Positions 35,205-51,455 of a DNA stretch of 64,000 bases are shown piece by piece. Made by a program: the position numbers and the translations under genes. The notes beneath the pieces were generated by a model. That model was not told where the DNA came from, ran no database searches, and saw nothing but the letters and a program-made list of their open reading frames with translations. The stretch lies in contig CAWINZ010000005.1 in the NCBI GenBank assembly GCA_963837695.1, positions 220,155-284,154 on the forward strand, in the 5' to 3' direction. Each line of letters opens with the position of its first letter. Position 1 is the first letter of the stretch. The stretch comes from an uncultured Solirubrobacterales bacterium. GTDB taxonomy: Bacteria > Actinomycetota > Thermoleophilia > Solirubrobacterales > 70-9.

Positions 35205-35445
35205 GATGGCGAAGGGTATCGAGTATCAATACACGATACAATCGAATGCGGAGCGGATGGCTATTCGAACCCCTGATCGTCCGCCACGTGGCGGGGCGCA
35301 CACTCGGTGCCCGGCCCGTTTAGCTGCCCGATCTGGATCGACTCGTCGTCCCAACCCCAAACCGAGAAACCAGCCGCCGCGAGTTCGTCAAGGACCGCAT
35401 CGAGCCTTGCCTTCGCCTCTGCGATGTCCATCGGTCCAGCCCCCG

Positions 35446-36142: not shown

Positions 36143-36184
36143 CGCGCCCGACAGGATTCGAACCTGTGACCTTCGGTTTCGTAG
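36143..36184 (-). repeat. att repeat R2: tRNA-Arg 3'-half copy flanked by both conserved arms (attP-like junction)
   Basis: 42 nt identical to 51382..51423. The conserved arm ~36054-36142 lies on one side and 36185-36304 on the other. Confidence 0.85.
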
Positions 36185-36317
36185 CCCGAGCCCGTGGATC
36201 GGCTGGGCTACGTGGAGCCCAGTTTCAAGCGGTTTCCGGCGAATCGAGTCCCGCTGGGATCGGCTGGAATCTGTGGGGCATGTTGCCCCAATTGTTGCCC
36301 CAGGAGGCTGATTCGGG

Positions 36318-36758: not shown

Positions 36759-36765
36759 CGCGCCG

Positions 36766-36933
36766 CTACTGCTCGTGGTCGGTCAGCTGCTCAATCCGCT
36801 TGAGCACGCCGCGGTCCAACCCGTCCGGGCTTTGCAAACGCTTGGCCAGCATGCGCAGCCGCTCGGCGCGCTTCTCCTCGCTCAGCGCCGGCTTCTCCGC
36901 AGTGGGAGTCGTGCTCGGGATCGGATGGCTCAC
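36766..36933 (-). CDS. possible 55-aa antitoxin upstream of vapC
   Basis: Own codon-by-codon translation: VSHPIPSTTPTAEKPALSEEKRAERLRMLAKRLQSPDGLDRGVLKRIEQLTDHEQ. It ends 7 nt before the vapC GTG. Below the ORF-track cutoff. Confidence 0.4.
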   Translation of the reverse strand: MSHPIPSTTPTAEKPALSEEKRAERLRMLAKRLQSPDGLDRGVLKRIEQLTDHEQ

Positions 36934-37001
36934 AGAGCCAGAATAGCGCGCGAGTCCGCTACTTCAGCGCTCCCAGCAAGACTGGCCGATACCTTCTCAG
37001 C

Positions 37002-37226
37002 ATGACCACTCGCGAGAAGCTGGAAAAGCTGCTCGACCGGTTCTCCGAGGACGAGCTGTCGGCGGAGTACGCGCGACTGCGGGAAGTCGTCGCAGGAAAA
37101 CGCCCTGCCGATAACCGGGCCAATCTTGAACAGTTCAGCGCCCGCGCCTCACGCGGCGTTCTCCGCCACATGGCCGAAGACGAAGAAGCGGCGGGACTCT
37201 CCTGGGAGGAGTTCCAGCCGCGGTGA
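37002..37226 (+). CDS. possible antitoxin (74 aa) coupled to a MazF-like fragment
   Basis: Its stop overlaps the next start as GTGA (37223-37226). Acidic and helical. Confidence 0.4.
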   Translation: MTTREKLEKLLDRFSEDELSAEYARLREVVAGKRPADNRANLEQFSARASRGVLRHMAEDEEAAGLSWEEFQPR

Positions 37227-37340
37227 CACGCGGCTGGGTCTGGTGTCACGAGCCGCCAGACAAAAAGCTACGCCCAGCTCTCGTCCTCACGAGCGACGAA
37301 GCCATCAGCGTCGCCAAAAACACCCTTAATCCGACTGCGC
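37223..37340 (+). pseudogene. N-terminal fragment of a PemK/MazF-family toxin
   Basis: TRGWVWCHEPPDKKLRPALVLTSDEAI resembles the RG.iw.v......K.RPalVl MazF N-terminus. The rest of the listed ORF is antisense to the 323-aa gene. Confidence 0.4.
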
Positions 37341-37345
37341 CAGCC

Positions 37346-38317
37346 CTACTCGACCAGTCGCCGCAACTCGTCGGTAAGCCGCTGCTCAAGGTGCCTGATA
37401 GTGGAGTAACTGATGCATCTCTCACTTTGGACATCGAACTTCAGATCGGAACCGTCATGACGCAGCAGCACGGTGGGAACCTCGGCTCCCCAGGCGAATC
37501 CAACCTCCAAGTAGACATTGGGGTTGGCGTCCGTGAGATCCGCGACAACCAGCGTCGCCGAGCGGATTCTCTCCTTGATGCGTTCTGGAATGCTGCCGGT
37601 GAACGCCTGCTCGTCAATCCGCTCGCAGAGCAAGCCGCTCTTGTGCACCGCAGGTTCGATGGCATAGTGGAAGATGTCTTCGAATTCTTGTGAGAAGGGC
37701 ATCGCCACGAACGCATGGTCCCGAGTGGCGGCGGTCGCTTCCGTTGACCGGCGTAGCCCCTTTGAAATCTCGCCCGTGGAAGTGGAAGTCAGTGACCCCG
37801 TCAGGCGCGACGTGGGAATCGCTTCCTCAAGGCGGATGCGAAGCCGCTCGGCGCGCTGCTCGTCCAACTCAACGATAGAAACTCGTTTGAGACTGCCCGC
37901 GGTCCGCCCCTCAATCCCTTCGACAATCCCCGCAAGCTCCGCTTCAAAACAAGCGGCCTCATCCAATCCATAGCCGACTCCGTGCAGGGTCAGGGCCAGG
38001 TCTTGACAGTCTGGAAACTCTGCCACCGCAAGGGATACCGCCCGGCGCCCGAACAGGCGAATCTCCGTGTAGCCGAAATCCGAAAGGGGCGGCACACCCA
38101 AGAAAACCACATTAGATGGCCCTACCTTTTCGGGACTGCGCACCACTAGCTGACCTCCAGGCCGAAGGTCCATCTCTAAATCCAGTCCAAGCCGTTCCTT
38201 TGCCGCCGCATCCACGCCAAGTGAAACCTGGGCGTGCTTGAGTACGAGCACATCGGAGGTGATAGCCAAAACATCGGCCGGGTCGACGTCGATAGCCACT
38301 CCCTGCAACTCCACCAT
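37346..38317 (-). CDS. two-domain cargo protein: unknown N-domain plus nucleoside 2-deoxyribosyltransferase/TIR-like C-domain (defence-effector candidate)
   Basis: 323-aa ORF. The C-terminal HAFVAMPFSQEFEDIF...ATLVVADLTDANPNVYLEVGFAWGAEVPTVLL matches the Rossmannoid pattern F.aMPF ... aDlt..NpNV.yE.GyA.g...p. Confidence 0.7.
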   Translation of the reverse strand: MVELQGVAIDVDPADVLAITSDVLVLKHAQVSLGVDAAAKERLGLDLEMDLRPGGQLVVRSPEKVGPSNVVFLGVPPLSDFGYTEIRLFGRRAVSLAVAEFPDCQDLALTLHGVGYGLDEAACFEAELAGIVEGIEGRTAGSLKRVSIVELDEQRAERLRIRLEEAIPTSRLTGSLTSTSTGEISKGLRRSTEATAATRDHAFVAMPFSQEFEDIFHYAIEPAVHKSGLLCERIDEQAFTGSIPERIKERIRSATLVVADLTDANPNVYLEVGFAWGAEVPTVLLRHDGSDLKFDVQSERCISYSTIRHLEQRLTDELRRLVE

Positions 38318-38402
38318 AGACGGCAGCTTAATCGGTTCTGGATACCCCTGGACCTTTCACTGGATTGTTCCCGGTCGCACACCACAGCTTTACCGCGAGC
38401 GT

Positions 38403-39629
38403 TCAAGACCAAAACGAACCTCTCGCAATGGCGCATTGCGAGACCATTTCCAACGGCGGCGCCTCGTCGCCCGGCAGCAGATGCGTGTAGCGGGTCAGCG
38501 TGAAGGCGGGCGAGTGGTGGCCGAGGGCTCGGCTCAGTTGGAGGAGGTTGGTGCCTTGGCTGAGGTGGAGCGAGGCGAAGGTGTGGCGGAACGTGTGGAA
38601 GCCCGCCCAGGGGGTGCCTGCCTCCTCTGCGAGGGGCTTCAGGACGCGGCGACGGAGGTTGCCCGGGTCGAGCGGGCCTCCGGCTTCGTTGGGGAAGGCG
38701 AGGGCGGTCGAGTCCCGGTCGGGCTGGGCGGCGAGATGGTCGCGCAGGCTCGCCGCCACTGATGCCGGTAGGCGGACCTCGCGTCGGCCGTGCCTGCTCT
38801 TGGGCGGCTCGATCCGCTCGCGGACGATCGCTCGGCGGATGCAGACCTCGGGCTCTGGGCCGTCAAGTTGAAGGTGCAGGCGTTGGAGGGCGATCGCCTC
38901 GCTGATCCGCAGGCCGCAGCTCGCCAGGAGCTCGAAGAGCGGGCGGTGGCGCTCGGGGGCTGTCGCCAGGAGCGCTGAGAGCTGCTCGCGGCTGAAGACC
39001 TTGATCTCCTCGCCCTCGTCCTCGAGCCGCTCGCGCTGGGGCAGCGCGAGGCCCTGAGCGGGGTTGTGGCGGATCAGGCCCTCGCGCTTGGCGGTCGCCA
39101 GGGCGGCGCGGATCGGTATCGCGACGTTGGCGATCGTGCGGTCGCTGAGGCGCTTGCCCTGCTCCTGCTCGTCGGCGAGCCAGTCGAGGAAGCGGGCGAG
39201 CTGGTAGGCGCTCAGCTCGGTGAGCTTCAGCCTGCCGGAGAAATAGCGGCGGGCGTAGATGCGGATCAGGCGCCGGTATTCGTCGCGGGTGTTCTCGCGG
39301 AAGCCCCGGCGGCCCTGGCCCCGATAGCGCTCGACCCACTCCTCCAGGTAGCGCAGGAAGGAGATCGTCGTGCGCTCCTGCAGCTCGCCGCGGTCGCGGT
39401 CGGTCTCGCTCTCGCGCTTGATCCGCTTTGCCTCCTCGTAGGTGCGGGCGCTGCGCTTGCGCTGCCTGCCGGCGCTGCGGAAGACGCAGACGTAGCCGAT
39501 CACGTCGCCGCCGGCGCCGAGCCGCTTGAAGACGCCTGGCGTCTTGGTCTTCTGGAGCCGCCGCTTGTCACCGCAGCCTGGACCGGCCGCAAGGGCCGAC
39601 GTATCCTGGGAAACGCTCATGAGCATCAC
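38403..39629 (-). CDS. int: tyrosine recombinase / phage-type integrase (element E2)
   Basis: The C-terminal catalytic region has GLRISEA, HTFRHTFAS and GHHSPAFTLTRYTHL (R..HxxR..Y). Confidence 0.9.
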   Translation of the reverse strand: MMLMSVSQDTSALAAGPGCGDKRRLQKTKTPGVFKRLGAGGDVIGYVCVFRSAGRQRKRSARTYEEAKRIKRESETDRDRGELQERTTISFLRYLEEWVERYRGQGRRGFRENTRDEYRRLIRIYARRYFSGRLKLTELSAYQLARFLDWLADEQEQGKRLSDRTIANVAIPIRAALATAKREGLIRHNPAQGLALPQRERLEDEGEEIKVFSREQLSALLATAPERHRPLFELLASCGLRISEAIALQRLHLQLDGPEPEVCIRRAIVRERIEPPKSRHGRREVRLPASVAASLRDHLAAQPDRDSTALAFPNEAGGPLDPGNLRRRVLKPLAEEAGTPWAGFHTFRHTFASLHLSQGTNLLQLSRALGHHSPAFTLTRYTHLLPGDEAPPLEMVSQCAIARGSFWS

Positions 39630-39740
39630 CTCGTGAGCCGGGGGCGGGCCGTTAGCGCGGCGCCGCCCCGTTTTGCGTTGTCGGACAAGACGTTAACAGG
39701 AAGATGCGGCCTGTCAGCCTGCTCCAACGATGGAGAGATG

Positions 39741-39812
39741 GGTTCGCTATGGGGTTCGCACTGCGGTTCGCACTGTAGTTCGCACTGCGGTTCGCACTGC
39801 ACTTCGCATGAG
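39741..39812. repeat. six tandem 12-bp repeats (consensus gGTTCGCACTGc) upstream of int
   Basis: Units read directly: ggttcgctatgg, ggttcgcactgc, ggttcgcactgt, agttcgcactgc, ggttcgcactgc, acttcgcatgag. Confidence 0.85.
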
Positions 39813-40008
39813 CCGATGCCGAAACCGAGGCAAAGCCGCATTGGAAGAGGCTTTGCGGCGACCACGCTTTGCTGACTTCTATATGTCGAACTAGCTTCTT
39901 TCCAGATTCGCTGTCGGTTGCCCTCGGGCTCGCGGTCCGTCCGCGTCCGTCAGCCTCGCCGTGGCTCTGCTGATCTTCGCCTGCCGGTCCCCCCGGCGCG
40001 GCTCGTTG

Positions 40009-40305
40009 TCACTCGCCGCGGGTCTGTGCGTCGCTCGACGGCGGGCTGTCGATCTCGTAGCGCCCGTCCCCCGTTCCGACGAAGCTCGGCCTGTAGGAGA
40101 TGCCGTCGAGCAGCTCGGCGGGCGAGACCGAGAGCGCGCCTGCGAGTCTGACGACGACATCCAGGGTGGGGACGTTGATCTGCCGCTCGTATTTCCGGAC
40201 GGCGTCGCGGCTGAGCGAGGCGCGGAGCGCCAGCCCTTCCTGGGTGAGACCCGCACGCTTGCGGAGGCCGATCAGGTTCTCGGCGAAACGGGCCTGGAAG
40301 CTCAC
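40009..40305 (-). CDS. XRE-family helix-turn-helix regulator (second of two)
   Basis: ORF 40009..40371 trimmed to the GTG at 40305, which overlaps the upstream stop as GTGA. FAENLIGLRKRAGLTQEGLALRASLSRDAVRKYERQ is an HTH_3 pattern. Confidence 0.7.
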   Translation of the reverse strand: MSFQARFAENLIGLRKRAGLTQEGLALRASLSRDAVRKYERQINVPTLDVVVRLAGALSVSPAELLDGISYRPSFVGTGDGRYEIDSPPSSDAQTRGE

Positions 40306-40591
40306 GGCGCCTGCTGCGGATCGTCCACCTCGAAGCGGCCCTCCACGACCTCGACGTGTCCGGGCGTCCACTTGAAGCCGGCGAGGAGGTCGCCCACGGG
40401 GACCGAGACAGCGCCCGCGAGCCTGACGATCGTGTCGATCCTCGGCGTCCGCGCTCCCCGCTCCAGCAGCCCGATCGCCGTGCGATGGAGCCCGGCCCGG
40501 TAGCCGAGCTCTTCCTGAGAAGCCCAGCCTGCTCGCGGCAGCGGGCGAGGTTGCGGCCGAACTGGGCGGCGACCTCGGCTGAACGCTTCAA
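40302..40591 (-). pseudogene. XRE-family HTH gene with a -1 frameshift (identical lesion in the sister copy)
   Basis: FGRNLARCREQAGL is in one frame and SQEELGYRAGLHRTAIGLLERGARTPRIDTIVRLAGAVSV is in the next. The junction is at ~40514-40525 and the length is 290 nt. The TTG start overlaps the upstream stop as TTGA. Confidence 0.55.
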
Positions 40592-40977
40592 AGGAGAAGG
40601 CCCTCGGGCACTTCGGCTGGCCCGCCCTTGACCAGCGTGGCGACGATCACGCCGCTGCGGCTCGTGTGCCCGCCCTCGACCGTCCAGCGGTCGCTGATCT
40701 GGCCCGCCGTGAGGACCGGCATGCCGCCGCGCAGCTCCTCGACGTCCCGCCCAGAGCGACCCGCGGGCACTTCGATGAGGCAGGTGGCGCATCTCCAAAG
40801 CGACTGCGGCCGGTCGGGGTCGACCACCGGGAACTCGACCCGCAGGAGGGTCGTGCGCTCCCCGGCCGGATTGCGGCCCTCCTGGGGGTCGGCGCTCAGC
40901 CTGCCGGTGAGGACGGCGTGGTTGATCGCCGGAGGGGTCGATGCGGGCCCCGGCGCCCGGTGCTCTGCGGGACTCAT
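40588..40977 (-). CDS. SSB-like OB-fold protein
   Basis: INHAVLTGRLSADPQ..R.....ER..LLRVEF resembles the N-terminus of single-stranded DNA-binding proteins. Confidence 0.55.
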   Translation of the reverse strand: MSPAEHRAPGPASTPPAINHAVLTGRLSADPQEGRNPAGERTTLLRVEFPVVDPDRPQSLWRCATCLIEVPAGRSGRDVEELRGGMPVLTAGQISDRWTVEGGHTSRSGVIVATLVKGGPAEVPEGLLL

Positions 40978-41378
40978 GCCGAGCCCTGGCGGGTGCGGAG
41001 CTCGAGCAGCAGCTCCGTGCCCGTGTCGAGAGTGAGGTGATAGCGACGGCGGCTAACTTCCTCGTCTTCGCGGGATTCGCGCTCGTCCGGTCGCTCGGTC
41101 AGCGCGCCCCTGGCGTCGGCTCGCAAGCGCTCGAAGATCGCGGCCAGCTCCCCGGACGGGATCGTCAGCGGGATCTCGGAGCGGTCATCGGGACCCCAGC
41201 CGAGGTCGTTGAGCAGACGGAAGTCCTCGGCGAACTCCCTGGCGAGCCGCCCGGCGGTGTCGAAATCCCCGCGGTCGATCGCTATCCGGACGTCTCCGAG
41301 GGCGCCCAGGTGTTCAACAAGGAACCCGTAGACGGCGTCTCGCTTCTCGCCCGTGAGAGTGGCGGTCGGGTGGTGCAT
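40974..41378 (-). CDS. hypothetical 134-aa backbone protein, first gene next to att
   Basis: Good RBS (GGAAGGAGA). Clearly diverged paralogue of 50665..51069. Confidence 0.6.
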   Translation of the reverse strand: MHHPTATLTGEKRDAVYGFLVEHLGALGDVRIAIDRGDFDTAGRLAREFAEDFRLLNDLGWGPDDRSEIPLTIPSGELAAIFERLRADARGALTERPDERESREDEEVSRRRYHLTLDTGTELLLELRTRQGSA

Positions 41379-41690
41379 GGCGTCTCCTTCCGGTCGGGCA
41401 CCGAAAGAGCCGCCAGGGATGCCGCCGTCAGAACGCCACGGCGGTACCGTCTCTCTCGCATCGAAGGCTCGTACTTCGGTGCCGGCCCCGGGGCGTTAGC
41501 GCGCTGCCGGGGCGCTTCTTATTCGCGTTTGCGCGGCGAACGTAGGTGGACCGGGAACCCAGCGCAAGGCCTGGGATCGAACCTCACTCCGACCTCATGT
41601 TGCCCCAGGCGTTGCCCCAGCGGCAATCTCGCACTGTTCGAGTGACCCTCGAAAAGCCGCAATCCCGCTTCACAAGCGGGATTGCCGGAG

Positions 41691-41732
41691 CGCGCCCGAC
41701 AGGATTCGAACCTGTGACCTTCGGTTTCGTAG
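41691..41732 (-). repeat. att repeat R3: tRNA-Arg 3'-half copy flanked by both conserved arms
   Basis: 42 nt identical to 51382..51423. The arm 41596-41690 is identical in layout to 51287-51381. Confidence 0.85.
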
Positions 41733-41896
41733 CCTGACCCCGCAGACCCGCTGGGCTACGTGGAGCCCGGATTCAAGCGGTTTCCGGCGAATCGAGCTAC
41801 GTGGAGATCGGCTGGAATCCGTGGGGCTGCTTGCCCCATTTCTTGCCCCAGGGACCGAACGGAGTTAGCTTCGTCCCTGGCCGATACCATGAGGAC

Positions 41897-42085
41897 ATGG
41901 CTCATGCCACCAAGGCAGATGAATCCGTCGCCAAGCGCCGCCGCGCGGCGGCTGAGGAGATGCGCGGCATGTTTGCCCATGTCGCTCCCGGGGTGAGCTT
42001 GGCAGACGAGCTAATCGCCGACCGTCGAGCCGAGGTCCGCTCAGAAGAGCGGGCAGAGGCCGAGCGGCGACGTGCCAACGGCTGA
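41897..42085 (+). CDS. possible VapB-type antitoxin (62 aa)
   Basis: ORF 41801..42085 trimmed to MAHATKAD, because the upstream part lies in the att arm. Overlaps the vapC start. Confidence 0.45.
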   Translation: MAHATKADESVAKRRRAAAEEMRGMFAHVAPGVSLADELIADRRAEVRSEERAEAERRRANG

Positions 42086-42494
42086 GACCCCGGCGTCGAT
42101 TCTCGACGCCTCAGCACTGCTCGCCCTGCTCCAAGATGAGCCAGGAGCCGCCGCGGTGGTCGAGGCAATCGAAGCTGGCGCCGCCATCAGCACCGTCAAC
42201 CTCTCTGAGGTGCTGGCCAAGCTGGCCGAGCGAGGAGAGCATGTGCGGTCGACTATGGCCACGATCGGGCAAGCCGTCGACCAGGCCGACGGCGGGCTTC
42301 GGATCGAGCCCTTCACGGAAGAGGACGGCATCGAGGCCGCAGACCTCCGACCACGCTCAAAGAGCCAAGGCCTGTCCTTCGGCGACCGGGCGTGCCTCGC
42401 CCTGGCCGCCCGCTTCGAGGTGCCGGCGGTCACAGCGGATGGAGACTGGGCCGACCTGCCGAAAGTCGGAGTCGCCGTCAAGCTGATCCGGTGA
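42072..42494 (+). CDS. vapC: PIN-domain toxin VapC
   Basis: ILDASALLALLQDEPG (first Asp), NLSEV, and SFGDRACLALAARFEVPAVTADGDW, a typical PIN pattern. Confidence 0.8.
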   Translation: MPTAETPASILDASALLALLQDEPGAAAVVEAIEAGAAISTVNLSEVLAKLAERGEHVRSTMATIGQAVDQADGGLRIEPFTEEDGIEAADLRPRSKSQGLSFGDRACLALAARFEVPAVTADGDWADLPKVGVAVKLIR

Positions 42495-42751
42495 CCGACA
42501 CCCGCTCGCGAAAATCGGCTAACCGGGAAAAGACCCTTGGACCGACCCACGATCCCCAGCCTGGTGACTTCGACGCCGAACTTGACCACCCCCGCCCCGA
42601 TCAGATTGAGATCCACAAGGGCAACCCCGACGCAAAGCTCTCGATCCTCGTCAGCGTCGAGGGCGACGACGCCAAGCGCCTAGAGCGAATCGCCACCGAG
42701 CGCGGCCAGCAACCCGGCGAGGTCGTCTCCCGGCTCCTACGCAGCGCCTGA
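42491..42751 (+). CDS. small protein with ribbon-helix-helix-like C-terminus
   Basis: GTG at 42491 overlaps the vapC stop as GTGA. The C-terminal DDAKRLERIATERGQQPGEVVSRLLRSA is CopG/RHH-like. Confidence 0.4.
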   Translation: MTDTRSRKSANREKTLGPTHDPQPGDFDAELDHPRPDQIEIHKGNPDAKLSILVSVEGDDAKRLERIATERGQQPGEVVSRLLRSA

Positions 42752-42787
42752 GCCTTCCAAAGAGCTTCGGATGCGACCGGCAGCAGT

Positions 42788-42940
42788 CCCGACCTGTGAC
42801 CTTCGGTTTCGCACTTGGACGGTCCGATTCGTAGCCCGAGCCGGGGGATCGGTTGGGCTACGTGGGGCGCGACTTCAATCGGTTTTCGGTCGATCGAGTC
42901 CCGCTGGGATCGGTTGGGCTACGTGGGGCATGTTGCCCAG
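42788..42940 (-). repeat. degenerate att plus arm (R4)
   Basis: cccgac[deletion]ctgtgaccttcggtttcg, then an 18-nt insertion, then cgtagcccgagcc..ggttgggctacgtgggg..catgttgccc. Recognisably related to R1-R3 plus the arm. Confidence 0.55.
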
Positions 42941-43099
42941 TGCGTGCTCGGCCGAGCTTTGGCTCTGCTGCCCTTCGAGCCACACGGATAGGTCCGCCCC
43001 AGTCAGGAAATCAGCGTGTGAGGTCAAGACAGGGCTCGGATGCAAGGCACGAGATCAATGTAGTGGCGGCCGGCGCCGGCAAGCGCGTCGACTGGCCAG

Positions 43100-45247
43100 C
43101 TAAGCCGCCAGGGACCAGAGATTCCAATCTCCGGCCCCCTTCAACTCTAGCTTGCCCATTTTGGCCCAGTCGAAATCGTGGGCGTTGATCCTGACCCGAT
43201 CATCCGTTACCACCAGGTTCGGCCGCGCCTGATCGCAAATGCGAGCCGCGACGTCCACATCGCGGCCGCGGAGATTTCCGAATTGATCCTTTCTCGCCAC
43301 ACCTTTGGTGAGGCCGGCCCGCGCCACGAGCTTGTCGCTGCCCGGATCAATGACCAAGTCCCTAAGGCACTTGATCGCAGCCATCGGCTCCTCAAATGCA
43401 AGAAGAAAGCCGTCTCCCGTGTCGTTGATGCGCATGCCCTTGTATTTCTTGAGGAGGCTGCGCATGCGCTTCTCGTGTGCGTTCCACTCCAGGGCATAGG
43501 CTTTCTCACCAAGCCGTCCCTTCGCATCCGTTGCACCGGTGAGATCGGTGAACGCGATCACCGTCTCCACCTCTTCAGTGGATGCAAGATCTGAAGCGTC
43601 GTAGGACCGCGAGGCTACATAGGTGATGAACTGCGATTTGTCCGCCCTTCCTTTCGCCGACAGGTTGTGGAAGGACTTCACACTGCGAAACCCCGACTCT
43701 TCAAGCAAGCCGACAAGCTGTTTGCGTTTGAACGGCAGCACGTCGAACGTCCCGACTGGCTTTCCGCTGCTTGAGCGGATGTACTCAAGCGTTAGGACGT
43801 CGTTGTCGATACCGGGCAACTCTGGCATGCTCTTCGGTCGCGCCCGAATCGTGTTGCTGCAGTAGACCACGCGTCCCGGAAAGCGAAAGTCCGGCTTCGC
43901 CATCTGCCGACGCTCGTCGAACATCGTCGGGTAATTGCGCTCATCGACGATCAACAACCCTTCCGGTCGCAGTAGGTAGGCAAAGCGCGTCAGAACCGCT
44001 CGCACGTCGCTGACCGTGCGCAGGCAGCTCAACGAGTTGCCCAAGGCTAAAAGTATGTCGAAAGTCTCTGGCTCGGCCAGATGCTCAAAGTGGCGCCAAT
44101 CAAAGCGGGTCAGGCTGAGGGGCGACCCGCCTTCCCGCTCCGAAAGCTCGGTCGCATGTGCGATCAGCCTCGCATCGATCTCGTTCGAGACAACCCGGTG
44201 CCCTTTGGAAAGCAGGTACGCCGAATCGCAGCCGACCCCGGTGGCGGCGTCGAGGACTGTCGCCTGAGCGAGGCCAATTTCCTCGATCCTGGCCTCCACG
44301 AACGGGCCCAGTTTGGTTACCCTTCTTTCAGGCGCAACAAACTCGTCCCAGACGTCTGCGAGTAGCGGCTCGAACATGCTGTCGAGGCTCCAGAGGATGT
44401 GCTCCTGCAGATCCGTTGGCACGTCGTCGGTAACAATCGTGTCATTGTTGAGGCTGACCAGTTCCGCTTGTTCGACGAGGCGGGCCACGTATCGCAGATA
44501 TGCCCGGAACCTGTCATCGAAGGGGTAGACAAGCTCCAAACGCAATCTGTTGTTGTTCGGCTTGACGTTTTCCTCAAAAAGCAGTGCGCAGGTGTTCACC
44601 CACAGGCCGAGATCACCGGTCCACTCTTCGTTCAGGACAGCATCGTGAATCAGCGCGTGCTTCTGGGGCTCGATGCACAGAGGGGTGATGTGGTGCCGTT
44701 TGTGCTCTTGAAAATATCGCCTGGCAAGGTCCGGATTACTGTCGAAATCCGCCTGCAGCGCCTTTACGGATTGGGGGATGATTCTCACGGACCTGGGAGC
44801 GTGGCACTCATGATGCGCAACAGTTGAAGAGAGATCGTCGTGGTCCTCGGGATCGCCCTCTGCGAGGTTGCCAAGCAGAAAGGGGTGGACCTGGAGAAAG
44901 CGACTCGGTGGGTGCGAGTCCACCCCGATGTAGATGTCTTGGATGGTGCTGTAGAACAGCGAGACGACGGCCTCCATCTGGTGGAGCGGAATCCGGATCT
45001 CCTGCTGTGCAGGGATGGCGTCGCCTTTCCCTCTGAGCAGGTCGACGAGCTGCTGCCCTGAGTTATCGAGGAACGCCTCCATGATCTCCTCTGCGACTCG
45101 CTGGTCATGGGCGATGGGACGCCGTCGCCCATTGGGAATCTCGATGCCGAGCTTCGACAACAGTTCAATGAACCGGAGCTCCAGTTTGGAGGAAGATTCT
45201 TTGTCTCGTCGAGAGTCAGACATAAAACACAGAAGTTCGTTTACCAA
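43100..45247 (-). CDS. three-module fusion protein: unknown N-domain, GNMT-like class I SAM methyltransferase, class III nucleotide cyclase
   Basis: MTase motifs: VLDAATGVGCDS, VVSNEID, FDILLALGNSLSCL, RPEGLLIVDERNY. Cyclase motifs: VIAFTDLTGAT, INDTGDGFLLAF, ARAGLTKG, GRDVDVAARI, ELKGAG. The listed start is TTG; the ATG at 45223 (MSDSRRDK) is the likelier start. Confidence 0.85.
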   Translation of the reverse strand: MVNELLCFMSDSRRDKESSSKLELRFIELLSKLGIEIPNGRRRPIAHDQRVAEEIMEAFLDNSGQQLVDLLRGKGDAIPAQQEIRIPLHQMEAVVSLFYSTIQDIYIGVDSHPPSRFLQVHPFLLGNLAEGDPEDHDDLSSTVAHHECHAPRSVRIIPQSVKALQADFDSNPDLARRYFQEHKRHHITPLCIEPQKHALIHDAVLNEEWTGDLGLWVNTCALLFEENVKPNNNRLRLELVYPFDDRFRAYLRYVARLVEQAELVSLNNDTIVTDDVPTDLQEHILWSLDSMFEPLLADVWDEFVAPERRVTKLGPFVEARIEEIGLAQATVLDAATGVGCDSAYLLSKGHRVVSNEIDARLIAHATELSEREGGSPLSLTRFDWRHFEHLAEPETFDILLALGNSLSCLRTVSDVRAVLTRFAYLLRPEGLLIVDERNYPTMFDERRQMAKPDFRFPGRVVYCSNTIRARPKSMPELPGIDNDVLTLEYIRSSSGKPVGTFDVLPFKRKQLVGLLEESGFRSVKSFHNLSAKGRADKSQFITYVASRSYDASDLASTEEVETVIAFTDLTGATDAKGRLGEKAYALEWNAHEKRMRSLLKKYKGMRINDTGDGFLLAFEEPMAAIKCLRDLVIDPGSDKLVARAGLTKGVARKDQFGNLRGRDVDVAARICDQARPNLVVTDDRVRINAHDFDWAKMGKLELKGAGDWNLWSLAA

Positions 45248-45414
45248 ACTGGCGGAGTTGCGGCAATCTAACGCATGAAGCCGACGACCACACGTCTGCG
45301 AATGGCCTCAGGCCTATCTAAGCCAGCGCATCACTCAGCTTGGCGCGGCAAGGATGGACGCGGTCTGCTTAACACTTAGCCAAGGCCACAAGTTGCGGCT
45401 GATCCCTCGGAAGA

Positions 45415-47415
45415 TCAATTTTTATCCTCGCTGGTTGCCGGGGCAAACCAGTGCCGCAGGGTCCGCCTCACACGCGGGGTTAGATTGGCGGCAAGCCAGG
45501 CGCGAGCAACCAAGAAATTCCAACCGGTCACAAGGCTGACGACGCCGCTGAGGGTAAGGAGGAACACAAGTCCCGAGCCGAGGGGAACTAGCTTTGACCA
45601 CGATGAGGGAAAGAGGCCCTGGGCGGCTGCGGCACAGGCGGCGATAAGCAGCAAGAGGGCGAATCCAAAGGCCGTCCACGAGATCGCGGAAGCCAACTGG
45701 TCGGCACGAGCGTCGAGACGGTCGGCGTGGCGGGTGGCGACGCGCTCGGCCCGCGCAGCCTCGGCGCTCGCGCGATCCTTTTCGGCCGCTACGGCGGCGT
45801 CGGAACGCTTGCGAAGCGCTCGCTCCCGCTTAAGCTCGTCCTCCACCTCCGCCCGCGCTGCCTGCTCGGCACGACGAAGAACCTCAGTGATGGTGCCAGC
45901 AGCGACAGCCTCAACGTCGCCGTCGGTGGCATTCATCAACTCGAGGCGGGCATCAGGCGAGAACAGCAGGAGACCGACCTGCTCCTCGCTAAGCTCGCCG
46001 CGCTCTTGTAGACGGCGGATCTCGGTCAGGTATTTGCGCCAGACATCCTCAGGCGGATTCAGGGCCGCATAGCTGATTGCGATGATCTGCCGACGAGGAA
46101 GATCAGAGGCTTGCGATGGGTTCATCAGCCAGACGATTGCGGCAAGGCTGTAGTCAGACATGCAGACCGGCACTGAACGGTGCCCGAAAATCTCGGCGAA
46201 GAAGGCGCGAGAGACGTGAGCTAGCGTGGTGTTGGTCGTAACAAGCAGCGCGTCGGCGCTCTCGATGTGGCGGCGAACCTCACCGCTGCGAAGCCGATAG
46301 ATCGCAGCCAGGGAGTCGAGATCCTTGACCATGGTGCCGTGAAGACGGTAGTGGACGCCATCTTTCAACGCCCTTCCCAACTCCTTCTCCGAAAGTTCAA
46401 TCTCTTCCGTGCGCTCGGGCGTGCCGACAACTTCGATCGCACGAGCGTCGAGCCGTTCGCTGAGCGCCGCGATGTCCATCTCGACATCGCTGCGGCTTAG
46501 GCTCTTCGACGCGAAGTAGTCGACCACATCGCCAGGGACATGGTCCTTCTTTCGTCCGGTGCGGTAGGTAGCAGCCGCGCCATCGAGGACTCCCTCGACC
46601 TCATGCAGGGTGTGCTCGAAGATGCGCAGCTTGGCGTCCTCTCCCGCCAGCAAGTCAACCAGTTCTTCGACCGGCTCCCTGTACTGCTCCTCGGCGTATC
46701 CCAGTGCGCGCAGAACGACTGGCGTATCGAGGTAGACCTCAACATCGGACAAGCGAGCACGGCCACCCGAGAACGTCTCCGGCAGAAAAAGAACGTTGGC
46801 CAACATGGATCCCTTGACAATCGTCGCCAAGTACTCGAAGGCCTGCGGCTCCTTGTGACAAAGATCGAGGACGAACCGACTGGTGACAACCGCGCCCTCG
46901 GACTCGATCTTAGGCAGCTCGACGACCGGTTCGCCGTCCACCACCGCGCCAAGTACCGGCTCAGCGAGAACCTCGACGTAGCCGAGTAGGGCCCGCTCAG
47001 CCTGCTCCTCGCTCCACTCGCGCCCCACGCCAGCAGCGAAATCGACCAGGAGGCCAACCAGATGGTTGTGCTGGCGGACAACATCTTCCCGCTCGGAGCC
47101 GAGGTCGAACTCGCGCAAAGCCTCCGGAATGCGTTCATAGGCACCGTGGCGACGACGAAGCAACCCATCGCGGGACATGCGGCCAAGGATCGTCTGCAGG
47201 GCACCCTGCGGGATGTGAAGGCCGAAGTCGCTGGCAACCAAAGCCTTGGTGTCGGGCAACGAAATCTTCTCGTGCTCCCCGCGGCGAATGCAGTCAGCGA
47301 CAATCGGGACGAAGTTGGCTATGTAGTCCTTGTCCTCATCCCAGTTGACCTTGATCACGGCCAAGGCCGAAATCGCCTTGAGAAGATCCACTGGAAGCAC
47401 GGCGGGCGCACTCAT
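45415..47415 (-). CDS. 666-aa protein of unknown function with Ala/Arg/Glu-rich coiled coil and two C-terminal TM helices (effector candidate)
   Basis: Long clean ORF in lower-GC DNA. The C-terminus has AISWTAFGFALLLLIAACAAAAQGLF and LVPLGSGLVFLLTLSGVVSLVTGW. Confidence 0.8.
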   Translation of the reverse strand: MSAPAVLPVDLLKAISALAVIKVNWDEDKDYIANFVPIVADCIRRGEHEKISLPDTKALVASDFGLHIPQGALQTILGRMSRDGLLRRRHGAYERIPEALREFDLGSEREDVVRQHNHLVGLLVDFAAGVGREWSEEQAERALLGYVEVLAEPVLGAVVDGEPVVELPKIESEGAVVTSRFVLDLCHKEPQAFEYLATIVKGSMLANVLFLPETFSGGRARLSDVEVYLDTPVVLRALGYAEEQYREPVEELVDLLAGEDAKLRIFEHTLHEVEGVLDGAAATYRTGRKKDHVPGDVVDYFASKSLSRSDVEMDIAALSERLDARAIEVVGTPERTEEIELSEKELGRALKDGVHYRLHGTMVKDLDSLAAIYRLRSGEVRRHIESADALLVTTNTTLAHVSRAFFAEIFGHRSVPVCMSDYSLAAIVWLMNPSQASDLPRRQIIAISYAALNPPEDVWRKYLTEIRRLQERGELSEEQVGLLLFSPDARLELMNATDGDVEAVAAGTITEVLRRAEQAARAEVEDELKRERALRKRSDAAVAAEKDRASAEAARAERVATRHADRLDARADQLASAISWTAFGFALLLLIAACAAAAQGLFPSSWSKLVPLGSGLVFLLTLSGVVSLVTGWNFLVARAWLAANLTPRVRRTLRHWFAPATSEDKN

Positions 47416-47614
47416 AACGCGCGCCCTCTTGCCGCGACGATGCGCTCGCTAAAGCTCACACGACCCCTTCCCGCCTTCAAGGCACAGACCCTCCCCGAAT
47501 GTCATTTTTCCCAGGCAGCCAGGCTACGCGGCATCAGGACTTCGAGCGTTCTCGTACCTGCAATTTCCGGTACTTAATTGATCCGGTCCCGACGCTCTGC
47601 GACGCCAAACGCAG

Positions 47615-48829
47615 TCAAGGCTCTTCGCCACGGCGTCGGTGCGACAGATCGAGCGCCGGCGCCTCGTCGCCGGGCAGCAGATGCGTGTAGCGGGTCAGCG
47701 TGAAGGCGGGCGAGTGGTGGCCGAGGGCTCGGCTCAGTTGGAGGAGGTTGGTGCCCTGGGCCAGATGGAGCGAGGCGAAGGTGTGGCGGAACGTGTGGAA
47801 GCCCGCCCATGGGGCGCCTGCCTCCTCTGCGAGGGGCTTGAGGACGCGGCGACGGAGGTTGCCCGGGTGGAGCGGGCCTCCGGCCTCATTGGGGAAGGCG
47901 AGGGCGGTCGAGTCCTGATCGGGCTGGGCGGCGAGATGGTCGCGCAAGCTCGCCGCCACCGATGCCGGTAGGCGGACCTCGCGTCGGCCGTGCCTGCTCT
48001 TGGGCGGCTCGATCCGATCGCGGACGATGGCGCGGCGGATGCAGACCTCGGGCTCGGGGCCGTCAAGCTGAAGGTGCAGGCGCTGGAGGGCGAGCGCCTC
48101 GCTGATCCGCAGGCCGCAGCTCGCCAGGAGCTCGAAGAGCGGGCGGTGGCGCTCGGGGGCTGTCGCCAGGAGCGCTGAGAGCTGCTCGCGGCTGAAGACC
48201 TTGATCTCCTCGCCCTCGTCCTCGAGCCGCTCGCGCTGGGGCAGCGCGAGGCCCTGAGCGGGGTTGTGGCGGATCAGGCCCTCGCGCTTGGCGGTCGCCA
48301 GGGCGGCGCGGATCGGTATCGCGACGTTGGCGATCGTGCGGTCGCTGAGGCGCTTGCCCTGCTCCTGCTCGTCGGCGAGCCAGTCGAGGAAGCGGGCGAG
48401 CTGGTAGGCGCTCAGCTCGGTGAGCTTCAGCCTGCCGGAGAAATAGCGGCGGGCGTAGATGCGGATCAGGCGCCGGTATTCGTCGCGGGTGTTCTCGCGG
48501 AAGCCCCGGCGGCCCTGGCCCCGATAGCGCTCGACCCACTCCTCCAGGTAGCGCAGGAAGGAGATCGTCGTGCGCTCCTGCAGCTCGCCGCGGTCGCGGT
48601 CGGTCTCGCTCTCGCGCTTGATCCGCTTTGCCTCCTCGTAGGTGCGGGCGCTGCGCTTGCGCTGCCTGCCGGCGCTGCGGAAGACGCAGACGTAGCCGAT
48701 CACGTCGCCGCCGGCGCCGAGCCGCTTGAAGACGCCTGGCGTCTTGGTCTTCTGGAGCCGCCGCTTGTCACCGCAGCCTGGACCGGCCGCAAGGGCCGAC
48801 GTATCCTGGGAAACGCTCATGAGCATCAC
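47615..48829 (-). CDS. int: tyrosine recombinase / phage-type integrase (element E3b)
   Basis: Differs from the E2 integrase by six substitutions plus a different C-terminal tail. Confidence 0.9.
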   Translation of the reverse strand: MMLMSVSQDTSALAAGPGCGDKRRLQKTKTPGVFKRLGAGGDVIGYVCVFRSAGRQRKRSARTYEEAKRIKRESETDRDRGELQERTTISFLRYLEEWVERYRGQGRRGFRENTRDEYRRLIRIYARRYFSGRLKLTELSAYQLARFLDWLADEQEQGKRLSDRTIANVAIPIRAALATAKREGLIRHNPAQGLALPQRERLEDEGEEIKVFSREQLSALLATAPERHRPLFELLASCGLRISEALALQRLHLQLDGPEPEVCIRRAIVRDRIEPPKSRHGRREVRLPASVAASLRDHLAAQPDQDSTALAFPNEAGGPLHPGNLRRRVLKPLAEEAGAPWAGFHTFRHTFASLHLAQGTNLLQLSRALGHHSPAFTLTRYTHLLPGDEAPALDLSHRRRGEEP

Positions 48830-48940
48830 CTCGTGAGCCGGGGGCGGGCCGTTAGCGCGGCGCCGCCCCGTTTTGCGTTGTCGGACAAGACGTTAACAGG
48901 AAGATGCGGCCTGTCAGCCTGCTCCAACGATGGAGAGATG

Positions 48941-49012
48941 GGTTCGCTATGGGGTTCGCACTGCGGTTCGCACTGTAGTTCGCACTGCGGTTCGCACTGC
49001 ACTTCGCATGAG
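48941..49012. repeat. six tandem 12-bp repeats (same array as 39741..39812)
   Basis: Identical sequence at an offset of 9200 nt. Confidence 0.85.
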
Positions 49013-49070
49013 CCGATGCCGAAACCGAGGCAAAGCCGCATTGGAAGAGGCTTTGCGGCGACCACGCTTT

Positions 49071-49723
49071 GCTGACTTCTATATGTCGAACTAGCTTCTT
49101 TCCAGATTCGCTGTCGGTTGCCCTCGGGCTCGCGGTCCGTCCGCATCCGTCAGCCTCGCCGTGGCTCTGCTGATCTTCGCCTGCCGGTCCCCCCCGGCGC
49201 GGCTCGTCGTCACTCGCCGCGCGTCGCCCCCATCCGGCTCCGACGCGGTTTCCGCTGGGGTTTACCCAGACGTTGACACCGGGGTTGCCCGTGCGGTTGA
49301 CACAGCCGATCGACCGGGGACGTGCGAAGCCGCCTGTGGCGCGGCGTTGCGACGACTCCCGTTCGCTGACATCTATTTGTCGAACCGATCAAGCGGGAGG
49401 CCTGCCAGCGGCAGTCAGAGCGCTTCGTTGCATGCTCGTCTTGCGGCTCGTTTCGTGGCTCGTTTCGTAGCTCGTTTCGTAGCTCGTTTCGTAGCTCGTT
49501 TCGTGGCTCGCACGAACCGGAGTCGGTGGCGGCGCAAAGTCGCTTGCCATCTGGCATTGCGGCCGTGCCGCTTCGCTGACATCTATCTGTGGAACTAGCT
49601 TCTTTCCAGATTCGCTGTCGGTTGCCTCAGGCTCGCGGACCGTCCGCGTCCGTCAGCCTCGCCGTGGCTCTGCTGATCTTCGCCTGCCGGTCCCCCCGGC
49701 GCGGCTCGTTGTCACTCGCCGCG
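49071..49723. repeat. ~150-bp direct repeats (49071-49221 and 49575-49723) bracketing a ~350-bp insert absent from E2
   Basis: Both copies align to the single E2 segment at ~39871-40021 (gctgac.tctat.tgt.gaactagcttctttccagattcgctgtcggttgcc...). Confidence 0.8.
49445..49516. repeat. second, different 12-bp tandem array ((g/a)GCTCGTTTCGT x5 plus one degenerate unit)
   Basis: Units read directly: ggctcgtttcgt x2, agctcgtttcgt x3, ggctcgcacgaa. Confidence 0.85.
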
Positions 49724-50008
49724 GGTCTGTGCGTCGCTCGACGGCGGGCTGTCGATCTCGTAGCGCCCGTCCCCCGTTCCGACGAAGCTCGGCCTGTAGG
49801 AGATGCCGTCGAGCAGCTCGGCGGGCGAGACCGAGAGCGCGCCTGCGAGTCTGACGACGACATCCAGGGTGGGGACGTTGATCTGCCGCTCGTATTTCCG
49901 GACGGCGTCGCGGCTGAGCGAGGCGCGGAGCGCCAGCCCTTCCTGGGTGAGACCCGCACGCTTGCGGAGGCCGATCAGGTTCTCGGCGAAACGGGCCTGG
50001 AAGCTCAC
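49712..50008 (-). CDS. XRE-family HTH regulator (identical to 40009..40305)
   Basis: The listed ORF 49712..50074 is identical in protein sequence to the E2 copy. Trimmed in the same way. Confidence 0.7.
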   Translation of the reverse strand: MSFQARFAENLIGLRKRAGLTQEGLALRASLSRDAVRKYERQINVPTLDVVVRLAGALSVSPAELLDGISYRPSFVGTGDGRYEIDSPPSSDAQTRGE

Positions 50009-50294
50009 GGCGCCTGCTGCGGATCGTCCACCTCGAAGCGGCCCTCCACGACCTCGACGTGTCCGGGCGTCCACTTGAAGCCGGCGAGGAGGTCGCCCAC
50101 GGGGACCGAGACAGCGCCCGCGAGCCTGACGATCGTGTCGATCCTCGGCGTCCGCGCTCCCCGCTCCAGCAGCCCGATCGCCGTGCGATGGAGCCCGGCC
50201 CGGTAGCCGAGCTCTTCCTGAGAAGCCCAGCCTGCTCGCGGCAGCGGGCGAGGTTGCGGCCGAACTGGGCGGCGACCTCGGCTGAACGCTTCAA
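50005..50294 (-). pseudogene. XRE-family HTH gene with the same -1 frameshift as 40302..40591
   Basis: Same DNA at an offset of 9703 (cttcctgagaagcccagcct at 50211-50230). Confidence 0.55.
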
Positions 50295-50668
50295 AGGAGA
50301 AGGCCCTCGGGCACTTCGGCTGGCCCGCCCTTGACCAGCGTGGCGACGATCACGCCGCTGCGGCTCGTGTGCCCGCCCTCGACCGTCCAGCGGTCGCTGA
50401 TCTGGCCCGCCGTGAGGACCGGCATGCCGCCGCGCAGCTTCTCGACCTCCCGCCGACCCGCCGGGACTTCGACCAGGCAGCTCGCGCAGCGCCACAGCGA
50501 GCGCGGGCAGTCGGGGTCGGTCACTGGGAACTCGATCCGCAGAAGCGTCACGCGCTCGCCCACGGGGCTGCGGCCCTCCTGAGGGTCGGCGCTCAGCCTG
50601 CCGGTGAGGACGGCGTGGTTGATCTCGGGCGGCCCTCCCGTGGGGAGCGGAGCGCTGCCCGCGATCAC
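50291..50668 (-). CDS. SSB-like OB-fold protein (mosaic paralogue of 40588..40977)
   Basis: The C-terminal half is identical to the E2 copy. The N-terminal half is diverged and 4 aa shorter. Confidence 0.55.
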   Translation of the reverse strand: MIAGSAPLPTGGPPEINHAVLTGRLSADPQEGRSPVGERVTLLRIEFPVTDPDCPRSLWRCASCLVEVPAGRREVEKLRGGMPVLTAGQISDRWTVEGGHTSRSGVIVATLVKGGPAEVPEGLLL

Positions 50669-51069
50669 TCCGCTTCCTCGCGCCTGCGGATCTCGAGCAG
50701 CACTTCGGCGCCCGCGTCGAGGACCAACTCGTAGCGCTGACGATTGGCCTCGTCGACCTCGCGGGCCTCATGCTCGTCCGCCGACTCGCCCAGGGCGCCC
50801 TGGGCGTCGCCGCGCAGCCGGTTCATGATCGCCGTCAACTCGCCGGGCGGAATCGTCAGCGGGACCGCTATGCGCTCGTCCGGTCCCCAGCCGATGTCAT
50901 CGAGCAGGCGGAAGTCCTCGGCGAACTCCCTGGCAAGCCGCCTGGCGGTTTCGACGTCCCCGCGGTCGATTGCTATCCGCACGTCTCCGAGGCCGCCCAA
51001 ATGCTCAATCAGGAGCTCGTGGACGGCATCTCGTTTCTTGCCGGTGATCACTGCGACCACCTCGGTCAT
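50665..51069 (-). CDS. hypothetical 134-aa backbone protein (diverged paralogue of 40974..41378)
   Basis: ORF trimmed to MTEVVAVITGKKRD, which follows the RBS GGAAGGAGA. Confidence 0.6.
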   Translation of the reverse strand: MTEVVAVITGKKRDAVHELLIEHLGGLGDVRIAIDRGDVETARRLAREFAEDFRLLDDIGWGPDERIAVPLTIPPGELTAIMNRLRGDAQGALGESADEHEAREVDEANRQRYELVLDAGAEVLLEIRRREEAE

Positions 51070-51349
51070 GGCGTTCTCCTTCCGGTCGGGCACCGAAAGA
51101 GCCGCCGCGGATGCCGCCCCCATAGGGCTACGGCGGTACCGTCTCTCCCGCATCGAAGGTGATCCCTTCGGTGCCGGCCCCGGGGCGTTTGCGCGCTGCC
51201 GGGGCGCTTTTCTTCAGTTGTCGCGGCCGAACGTAGGTGGACGGGAGCGCCGTCTCAAGGCCCGCCGCCGACCCTCGCTCGCTTCTCATGTTGCCCCAGG
51301 CGTTGCCCCAGCGGCAATCTCGCACTGTTCGAGTGACCCTCGAAAAGCC

Positions 51350-51376
51350 GCAATCCCGCTTCACAAGCGGGATTGC
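51350..51376 (-). terminator. 10-bp stem hairpin just downstream of tRNA-Arg (element-borne; also present at R2 and R3)
   Basis: gcaatcccgc / ttcacaa / gcgggattgc read directly. Confidence 0.5.
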
Positions 51377-51381
51377 CGGAG

Positions 51382-51455
51382 CGCGCCCGACAGGATTCGA
51401 ACCTGTGACCTTCGGTTTCGTAGACCGACGCTCTATCCAACTGAGCTACGGGCGC
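51382..51455 (-). tRNA. tRNA-Arg (anticodon ACG), integration target
   Basis: Hand-folded 74-nt cloverleaf: acceptor GCGCCCG/CGGGCGC, anticodon arm TCGGT-CTACGAA-ACCGA, T arm ACAGG-TTCGAAT-CCTGT. CCA is not encoded. Confidence 0.9.

Follow-up and report, generated by a model that had tools for sequence, protein, structure and literature searches.

The cyclases described for Pycsar-type immune systems, PycC and PucC, consist for the most part of a catalytic domain alone, without an evident input (PMC11224242; bioRxiv 10.64898/2026.08.12.744502). PycTM, a membrane effector of Pycsar, belongs to the pJV1-SpdB3 family of proteins with three transmembrane (TM) helices, and the TM effectors of Pycsar are without a recognizable domain for binding cyclic nucleoside monophosphates (cNMPs). 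Here, we describe gene A from a 64,000-nucleotide stretch of DNA of an uncultured Solirubrobacterales bacterium (contig CAWINZ010000005.1; this whole stretch is referred to as the window, and coordinates count from its first letter). Gene A lies beside a second gene, B, in a small integrative element, and encodes a class III nucleotidyl cyclase fused to a methyltransferase and a further N-terminal domain. The evidence tips slightly toward A belonging to a family of sensor-fused, Pycsar-like cNMP signaling proteins, which is present here as an orphan.

The A family shares with Pycsar a class III-fold cyclase with an intact pair of metal-binding aspartates (D568, D612) and R669, a PF18967 (PycTM) gene directly beside an A homolog in two loci, and occurrence in mobile elements and defense islands. 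It differs from Pycsar in that the sequence of its cyclase is not PycC-like, in that it has an N-terminal extension of about 550 aa (a new domain and a methyltransferase resembling glycine/sarcosine N-methyltransferase [GSMT]), and in that no effector gene adjoins A in the window.

Domain architecture of the gene A protein

Gene A and its three domains occupy the following positions.

43100..45247, minus strand: gene A, a 715-aa open reading frame (ORF) from TTG, encoding the N-domain, a methyltransferase of the GSMT/glycine N-methyltransferase (GNMT) family, and a class III cyclase
44363..45010, minus strand: N-domain of A (aa ~80-295), well folded, with no Pfam or PDB sequence match
43601..44362, minus strand: methyltransferase of A (aa 296-549), a class I S-adenosylmethionine (SAM) methyltransferase of the glycine/sarcosine N-methyltransferase family
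43103..43585, minus strand: cyclase of A (aa 555-715), a class III nucleotidyl cyclase of the Rv1900c/Ma1120 type

The likelier start of gene A is an ATG at 45223 (MSDSRRDK, 707 aa), consistent with the starts of its homologs. An AlphaFold2 model of A was built from 28 family sequences (mean predicted local distance difference test [pLDDT] score, 79.8; predicted template modeling score, 0.66). Foldseek aligned its C-terminal domain to the cyclase domain of Rv1900c (1ybt/1ybu) with TM-scores of 0.87 to 0.92 and root-mean-square deviations of 1.4 to 2.0 Å (1ybu, 0.92 and 1.4 Å). A search of PDB with the A family profile returned Rv1900c (1ybt, E 9e-27) and Ma1120 (E 1.5e-23), and the cyclase part of the NCBIfam LipJ model matched aa 555-713 of A (E 7.5e-17). 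The score against Pfam PF00211 (Guanylate_cyc), 17.0 bits, lies below the gathering cutoff of 21.9 bits. Among characterized enzymes, the closest relatives of this domain are adenylate cyclases. Its nearest relatives overall, at about 30% identity, are small stand-alone PF00211 proteins, which are uninformative on an immune versus a physiological origin.

The cyclase domain looks catalytically competent. All 26 full-length members, which are 45 to 84% identical, retain the metal-binding residues D568 and D612, the transition-state residue R669, and R643. In the alignment of A to Ma1120 and Rv1900c, N608 takes the place of the canonical substrate lysine (Rv1900c also has asparagine there), N658 that of the substrate aspartate, and D665 that of the transition-state asparagine; with these three specificity and transition-state positions noncanonical, base specificity of A cannot be read from the residues. 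Two other family members, P0026 and P0027, carry the canonical lysine and asparagine at the positions of N608 and D665. Rv1900c (LipJ, an alpha/beta-hydrolase fused to a cyclase) and Ma1120 are closest to the A cyclase in both sequence and fold, at 30% identity, and Rv1900c also resembles A in the asparagine at the substrate-lysine position and in the arrangement of a large N-terminal noncyclase module with a C-terminal cyclase. However, the N-terminal module of A consists of an unknown domain and a methyltransferase rather than a lipase-like hydrolase, and the transition-state asparagine is replaced by aspartate in A and by histidine in Rv1900c. Unlike the mycobacterial multidomain class III cyclases, A is encoded by a rare gene of foreign composition that is borne by a mobile element.

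The methyltransferase domain matches Pfam Methyltransf_25 at aa 331-430 and, over its full extent (aa 296-549), the NCBIfam model for bacterial glycine/sarcosine N-methyltransferase (GlySarMtaseBact, NF051855; E 6e-28). Similarity to the GSMT structure 5gwx spans the whole domain (phmmer, E 9e-20), and Foldseek returned 5him (E 5e-16; TM-score, 0.82). Within the A family, motif I (LDAATGVG), E356, DWRH (D383), LGNS (N404), and DERNY (R437, Y439) are invariant, and alignment to 5gwx and mouse GNMT (1r8x) confirmed the presence of GNMT-type SAM and substrate residues. In GNMT, the arginine of the xRNY-type motif binds the glycine carboxylate, and this arginine is conserved in the A family. The homology to GSMT of Methanohalophilus portucalensis and to mammalian GNMT is thus full-length, with SAM motif I, the ribose-binding acidic residue, DWR, LGNS, and (D/H)RNY kept, but identity is only 26 to 27%, His142 of GNMT corresponds to Cys408 in A, and the domain of A sits between two other domains. 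The NF051855 score of A (98.1 bits) is far below the equivalog cutoff (350 bits), and A is therefore a family relative of GNMT and GSMT rather than an equivalog.

The N-domain is predicted to be a confidently folded alpha/beta domain (pLDDT 85 to 95). A profile of it found no match among PDB sequences at E ≤ 10, a Pfam scan of 16 family members returned nothing meaningful for it, and the Foldseek results for the whole A model were dominated by the methyltransferase and cyclase domains. A search of 1.84 billion representative proteins with the N-domain alone gave 21 clusters, and in every case a GSMT-like methyltransferase accompanies the domain. We conclude that the N-domain represents a family not previously defined.

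The N-domain and the methyltransferase also occur without a cyclase. In six metagenome loci (L018, L019, L020, L022, L023, and L024), they are encoded by two adjacent genes, and in all six the gene order is the same: ATPase, solute-binding protein (SBP_bac_8), permease, permease, N-domain protein, methyltransferase. The first four genes encode a PotABCD-like, polyamine-type ATP-binding cassette (ABC) importer. The stand-alone N-domain proteins of about 300 aa have N-terminal TM helices, and hhalign linked them to the N-domain profile of A with 99.8% probability (E 7e-29); the stand-alone GSMT-like methyltransferases of about 265 aa (NCBIfam, E 5e-40) are 31 to 34% identical to that of A. With a GC content of 0.35 to 0.57, the contigs carrying the six-gene cluster are apparently nonactinobacterial. 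In addition, fused forms of 540 to 570 aa comprise the N-domain and the methyltransferase only (P0032 and P0034 to P0036). The six-gene operon hence has the two modules found in the N-terminal 550 aa of A, likewise with the N-domain first, but as separate, transporter-linked genes, with a TM-anchored N-domain protein and no cyclase.

These forms would fit an evolutionary series from two genes beside an amine-type importer to a fusion and then to a fusion with a cyclase, which implies that the N-terminal 550 aa of A probably bind SAM along with a small amine-type ligand, possibly as a substrate for methylation. On this view, the N-terminal two-thirds of A represent a preexisting amine/SAM module rather than an arbitrary fusion. 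The first-pass annotation of this locus had speculated on SAM depletion or a methyl-acceptor ligand as the input; the retained GNMT/GSMT residues and the importer-linked cousins point to a small amine ligand as at least as likely as the SAM level. The six-gene cluster itself, apparently undescribed, suggests uptake and N-methylation of an amine.

One cyclase-less fusion stands in a setting of its own. P0035 (L026/L027/L028, 6373-12649) is encoded between the genes for a 530-aa protein matching PADLOC Mem_01 (six TM helices, E 4e-30) and an 833-aa patatin-like protein, with a DUF4011/AAA_11/AAA_12 helicase gene upstream. In this one lineage, the same module may form the basis of a different conflict system; we dropped it as evidence, since the arrangement is absent from every other locus.

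The whole A family comprises about 35 clusters among 5.8 billion proteins, with two matches among 185,579 species-representative genomes, both of them metagenome-assembled genomes of Actinomycetota. The sole source name found for it is "methyltransferase domain-containing protein." The family is very rare, actinobacterial, and undescribed, and its architecture is new. A methyltransferase-fused cyclase is not described among Pycsar clades A to E (PMC11224242) or the subclades of a 2026 survey (bioRxiv 10.64898/2026.08.12.744502), and searches with PADLOC, Pfam, and NCBIfam found no CD-NTase/SMODS, TIR, or Cas10 domain, the hallmarks sought for CBASS, Thoeris, and type III CRISPR, in A or B. The reading of the 715-aa protein as three modules in the first-pass annotation is borne out by Pfam, NCBIfam, phmmer, and Foldseek for the methyltransferase and by NCBIfam, Foldseek, and the family profile for the cyclase, the latter having the cyclase fold that AlphaFold and Foldseek had been proposed to check. 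All motifs quoted there are present in the translation, the absence of a known motif from aa 1-320 agrees with our N-domain searches, and the architecture does lie outside the described Pycsar, Pucsar, CBASS, and Thoeris cyclases, as PADLOC gave no cyclase match and neither survey lists such a fusion.

PADLOC did match its mad2 model (mads_2) to the Rossmann methyltransferase core of A (aa 329-440, E 7e-13). MADS is an eight-gene operon with mandatory mad6-8, in which mad2 is a predicted N6-adenine DNA methyltransferase (bioRxiv 10.1101/2023.03.30.534895). The methyltransferase of A, in contrast, is of the small-molecule GNMT type; the match reflects a generic Rossmann methyltransferase, the neighbors of A are B and an attachment (att) site remnant with no other mad genes, and membership of A in MADS was rejected.

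PycTM neighbors and rival readings of the A family

Full-length homologs of A were found in 13 distinct loci, inspected with up to 10 kb of flanking sequence (the window, L001/8, L002, L003/4/11, L009, L010, L012, L013, L014/15, L016/30, L017, L031, and L032). This count includes the window itself, where A and B adjoin. In L031, the stop of the A homolog P0009 overlaps the start of a 174-aa gene, which matches PF18967 (E 6e-18) and lies beside a Vsr gene and an HATPase_c_3/AAA pair. In L010, a 191-aa PycTM gene (PF18967, E 1e-18) is located 35 nt beyond the A homolog P0018 in convergent orientation. The two PycTM proteins are 55% identical, each with three predicted TM helices. P0009 and P0018 belong to different deep clades in a neighbor-joining tree of the A family, and the association with PycTM is therefore old or recurrent. 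Where a partner of the A family exists, this partner is PycTM and not B.

A mobile-element or defense-island setting was evident in at least 7 of the 13 loci, the neighbors including integrases, TrwC, a serine recombinase, HicAB, DarT, AbiE, a KwaB-like gene, and Vsr/HATPase_c_3. All-against-all clustering of the flanking ORFs revealed that only generic XRE helix-turn-helix genes recur. The earlier proposal of a candidate cyclic-nucleotide defense system divides into two parts: assignment to such a family gains from the PycTM genes that adjoin two deep-branching homologs, whereas the 666-aa product of gene B as the effector is unsupported.

More likely than not, the A family works as a sensor-fused cyclase in a Pycsar-like abortive-infection pathway, with PycTM as the effector where it is linked. 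The N-domain/methyltransferase module would be the input, binding SAM together with a small carboxylate- or amine-type ligand, which it may methylate, and would control dimerization or activity of the cyclase domain, which in turn would make a 3',5'-cNMP. As no PycTM or other recognizable cNMP receptor is linked to A in the window, A would act here as an orphan cyclase with an unlinked receptor or none.

Several observations weigh against this Pycsar-like reading. PycTM adjacency is limited to 2 of the 13 loci. A tblastn search of the window with the L031 PycTM protein gave a best E value of 8.7 and hence no PycTM homolog, and no other recognizable effector or cNMP receptor, TIR or CNBD, is linked in the window; E. 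coli CRP, a query of low sensitivity, likewise had no tblastn match there. The PycTM family includes SpdB3 of the Streptomyces plasmid pJV1, and its Actinomycetota copies could be plasmid-spread genes rather than immune effectors. Neighbors are plain chromosomal genes in three A loci (L030, L003, and L009), and the link of the split module to an ABC importer points to metabolism rather than immunity. Regarding the cyclase, three of six canonical residues are replaced in A of the window, so that activity may be low, as in Rv1900c. The domain is also much nearer to physiological adenylate cyclases of actinobacteria than to a structurally solved Pycsar cyclase: among PDB sequences, the family profile reached the Pycsar uridylate cyclase 8jsz with an E value of 0.43 as opposed to those of Rv1900c and Ma1120 given above, and the PADLOC Pycsar cyclase models had no match to A at E ≤ 1.

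Two loci contain further genes of potential relevance to signaling. About 500 bp downstream of P0026 in L014/L015 (10250-11032, plus strand), a gene encodes a protein of 260 aa that has two TM helices near its N terminus and matches nothing in Pfam; this protein could be an alternative effector. Directly upstream of the A homolog in L009 lies a LigT-like 2H phosphoesterase gene (9220-9822, minus strand). Enzymes of the 2H phosphoesterase superfamily can hydrolyze cyclic nucleotides, and this proximity may be a coincidence.

A possible, if on the whole doubtful, alternative is that A is a ligand-regulated physiological or accessory adenylate cyclase, comparable to Rv1900c, Rv1264, and Rv0386, encoded by an accessory gene that is spread by mobile elements and has no role in phage defense. 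The N-domain and methyltransferase would then sense or process an imported amine or the status of SAM and S-adenosylhomocysteine (SAH) and set the level of cyclic AMP for CRP-type proteins of the host. Rv1900c, Ma1120, and Rv1264 as the best matches of the A cyclase fit this explanation, as do the full canonical adenine-specific residue set of P0026 and P0027, the split module behind a PotABCD-like importer in six loci, the 11 of 13 A loci without an effector gene, and the chromosomal position in L030, L003, and L009. It accounts less well for PycTM genes beside A homologs of two deep clades, once with overlapping stop and start codons, for the patchy distribution and rarity of the family (two of 185,579 species genomes; some 35 clusters in 5.8 billion proteins), and for the foreign GC content of A and the predominance of mobile elements and defense islands among its contexts.

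We regard as unlikely the stronger proposition that the A family is a new Pycsar-like immune cyclase with a built-in infection sensor, in which the GSMT-type module and the N-domain read a phage-induced change in a metabolite and trigger cNMP synthesis. Candidates for this metabolite are SAM or SAH, a polyamine, or a glycine-like amine. In a bolder version, the two catalytic domains of A might jointly produce a nucleotide signal that is methylated or derived from SAM, analogous to SAM-AMP, which is made by the palm domain of Cas10 in some type III CRISPR systems.

Less probable still, A could be primarily a small-molecule N-methyltransferase, with a dead or nearly dead cyclase-like domain that serves dimerization or nucleotide-binding regulation. 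The conserved core of the wider family, the N-domain and methyltransferase without a cyclase in P0032, P0034 to P0036, and the six split loci, is in line with this idea, and so are the replacement of three of six canonical cyclase residues and the Pfam score of 17 versus 21.9 bits. Yet D568, D612, R669, and R643 are invariant in 26 of 26 full-length members, which is unexpected for a dead domain, adjacency of PycTM implies a diffusible signal, and Rv1900c, with substitutions similar to those of A, is an active cyclase, which likewise counts against a dead domain in A.

Gene B and the integrative element

Gene B and the other main features of the element are located as follows.

45415..47415, minus strand: gene B, 666-aa protein, an independent cargo gene
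45445..45606, minus strand: two C-terminal TM helices of B (aa 604-657; AlphaFold model)
46126..46740, minus strand: tentative PIN-like domain of B (aa 226-430), with invariant D230, E272, D365, and N395
45248..45414, no strand: B-A intergenic spacer; homology to L007 stops at 45310
47615..48829, minus strand: tyrosine integrase of the A/B element (Phage_integrase, E 3.5e-16)
42792..42938, no strand: decayed distal att, a repeat of the 3' part of tRNA-Arg and its flank, forming the element boundary on the A side
51381..51455, minus strand: tRNA-Arg (ACG), the integration target; proximal att copy at 51401-51433

A and B are, as far as their genomic distribution tells, unrelated cargo genes lying side by side and not a two-gene system. 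Inspection of gene tables and tblastn searches revealed that B is absent from all 13 distinct A loci and that A is absent from the three loci with B homologs (L005, L006, and L007). L007, which derives from a close relative, shares 92% nucleotide identity with the window over 45310-49254 and encodes a B protein 98% identical to that of the window. Its order is integrase, B, a PemK-type toxin-antitoxin pair in place of A, and then an att remnant. The DNA homology breaks at 45310 inside the B-A spacer, implying that some 90 bp of native upstream sequence came in together with A, and this break point together with the L007 layout indicates that A was acquired separately, at the variable end of the element.

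The proposal that A and B form a two-gene cyclic-nucleotide defense system, in which A would synthesize the messenger and B would act as its membrane receptor and cell-killing effector, is therefore highly improbable: the genes lie on the same strand 167 nt apart with no predicted terminator between them and a similar foreign composition, and B has a two-TM anchor and a possible nuclease domain and would share with Pycsar TM effectors the lack of a recognizable cNMP-binding domain, but A-B synteny is 0 of 13 and 0 of 3, the L007 element holds a 98% identical B without A and with the homology break between the genes, B has no PycTM similarity, cNMP-binding fold, or PADLOC match, and B homologs occur alone beside other toxin-antitoxin and defense genes. 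Neither a terminator nor a promoter was predicted between B and A, which is uninformative for a high-GC actinobacterium.

The B family comprises about 60 clusters, all of about 665 aa. The AlphaFold model of B (pLDDT 75.5) consists of a winged helix (aa 53-95), a helical region, an alpha/beta domain (aa 226-430), a coiled coil (aa 506-597), and the two TM helices (aa 604-657). The winged helix has weak MarR_2 matches in 7 of the 55 members tallied, the coiled coil is modeled as a single helix of about 90 residues, and the TM region gives weak Bestrophin-like/DUF4239 matches in 9 of 55. The alpha/beta domain is tentatively PIN-like. Its invariant residues D230, E272, D365, and N395 fall at the positions of the PIN acidic tetrad, Foldseek ranked VapC (7vwo_A; E 0.089, probability 1.0) first and then the PIN-like HARP RNase P, and 1 of 55 members matches PIN_3 (E 0.0012). 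A PDB profile search, hhalign against three VapC PIN domains, and a BFVD fold search were all negative for this domain, for which reason we keep the PIN-like label as tentative. B is not similar to PycTM and matches no PADLOC model. Homologs of B neighbor integrases and MNT/HEPN, PemK, AbiE, SNIPE, and SIR2 genes, and the simplest explanation for B is that of a mobile-element gene that acts autonomously in conflict or addiction. Relatives of A or B were absent from IMG/VR contigs, and a viral origin of either gene was dropped on this ground.

The element of about 8.6 kb (42792-51433) is integrated at tRNA-Arg and carries A and B in a variable slot. Its distal att is composed of two repeat pieces (42792-42824 and 42818-42938). 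GC content and GC content at third codon positions are 0.583 and 0.73 for A, 0.623 and 0.73 for B, and 0.71 and 0.90 for the integrase, with a GC content of 0.683 for the whole window. What the first-pass annotation had described of the locus itself stands: both same-strand ORFs between the 3' end of the integrase gene and the decayed distal att were confirmed along with the att copy, A and B are more AT-rich than the window (0.583 and 0.623 versus 0.683), and the cargo slot of the sister element holds an unlike gene (323 aa, 37346-38317, minus strand). For the 666-aa protein, the proposed coiled coil and two TM helices were seen in the model at aa 506-597 and 604-657, and the lack of a cNMP-binding motif agrees with an all-helical model with one alpha/beta domain and no cNMP-binding fold. 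Its proposed role as partner or effector of the cyclase fails on the synteny counts and on L007, where integrase and B occur without A, and the conserved neighborhood that was to be checked among homologs does not recur elsewhere.

Copies of the 3' part of tRNA-Arg occur at 33238, 36162, 41710, 42792, and 51401, the last one inside tRNA-Arg, which indicates that, in the window, several small integrative elements are arrayed in tandem at this tRNA gene. The array of element remnants spans 33238-51455. The window encodes two integrases (38403-39629 and 47615-48829) that are about 94% identical, the former belonging to the sister element. Regulatory regions are likewise duplicated (39922-41273 and 49625-50964). 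The 323-aa cargo protein of the sister element has a weak C-terminal match to Nucleoside 2-deoxyribosyltransferase-like (E 0.0012), its gene has a GC content of 0.594, and it is a candidate for another conflict gene in the same cargo slot. Just upstream of each integrase gene lie 12-nt tandem repeats of about seven units (GGTTCGCACTGC-like; 39729-39820 and 48929-49020), and a second 12-nt repeat of about six units (GCTCGTTTCGTA-like; 49434-49510) is restricted to the A/B element; these runs could be arm-type integrase sites or iterons. VapC-type PIN toxin genes are located beside att remnants at 41801-42494 (plus strand) and 36318-36758 (minus strand; Pfam PIN, E 4e-15 and 5e-13, respectively), the former region including a likely antitoxin gene upstream at 41801-42085. 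Further GC dips are found at 15000-17000 (0.63) and at 60000-61000 (0.574), the latter just past tRNA-Ser (59746-59836), and both may be additional islands.

Significance of the A family

In the A family, a cyclase fold of the kind found in Pycsar is joined to a 550-aa module that resembles a small-molecule-binding enzyme pair, and it is linked to PycTM in two lineages. The A family thereby offers a testable handle, in the form of ligand and SAM dependence, on the question of how Pycsar-type cyclases sense infection. Either version of the built-in infection sensor, if true, would define an input of a Pycsar-type cyclase for the first time. Beyond cyclic-nucleotide signaling, the pairing of the N-domain with a GSMT-like methyltransferase points to an uncharacterized amine-methylation pathway behind a polyamine-type importer.

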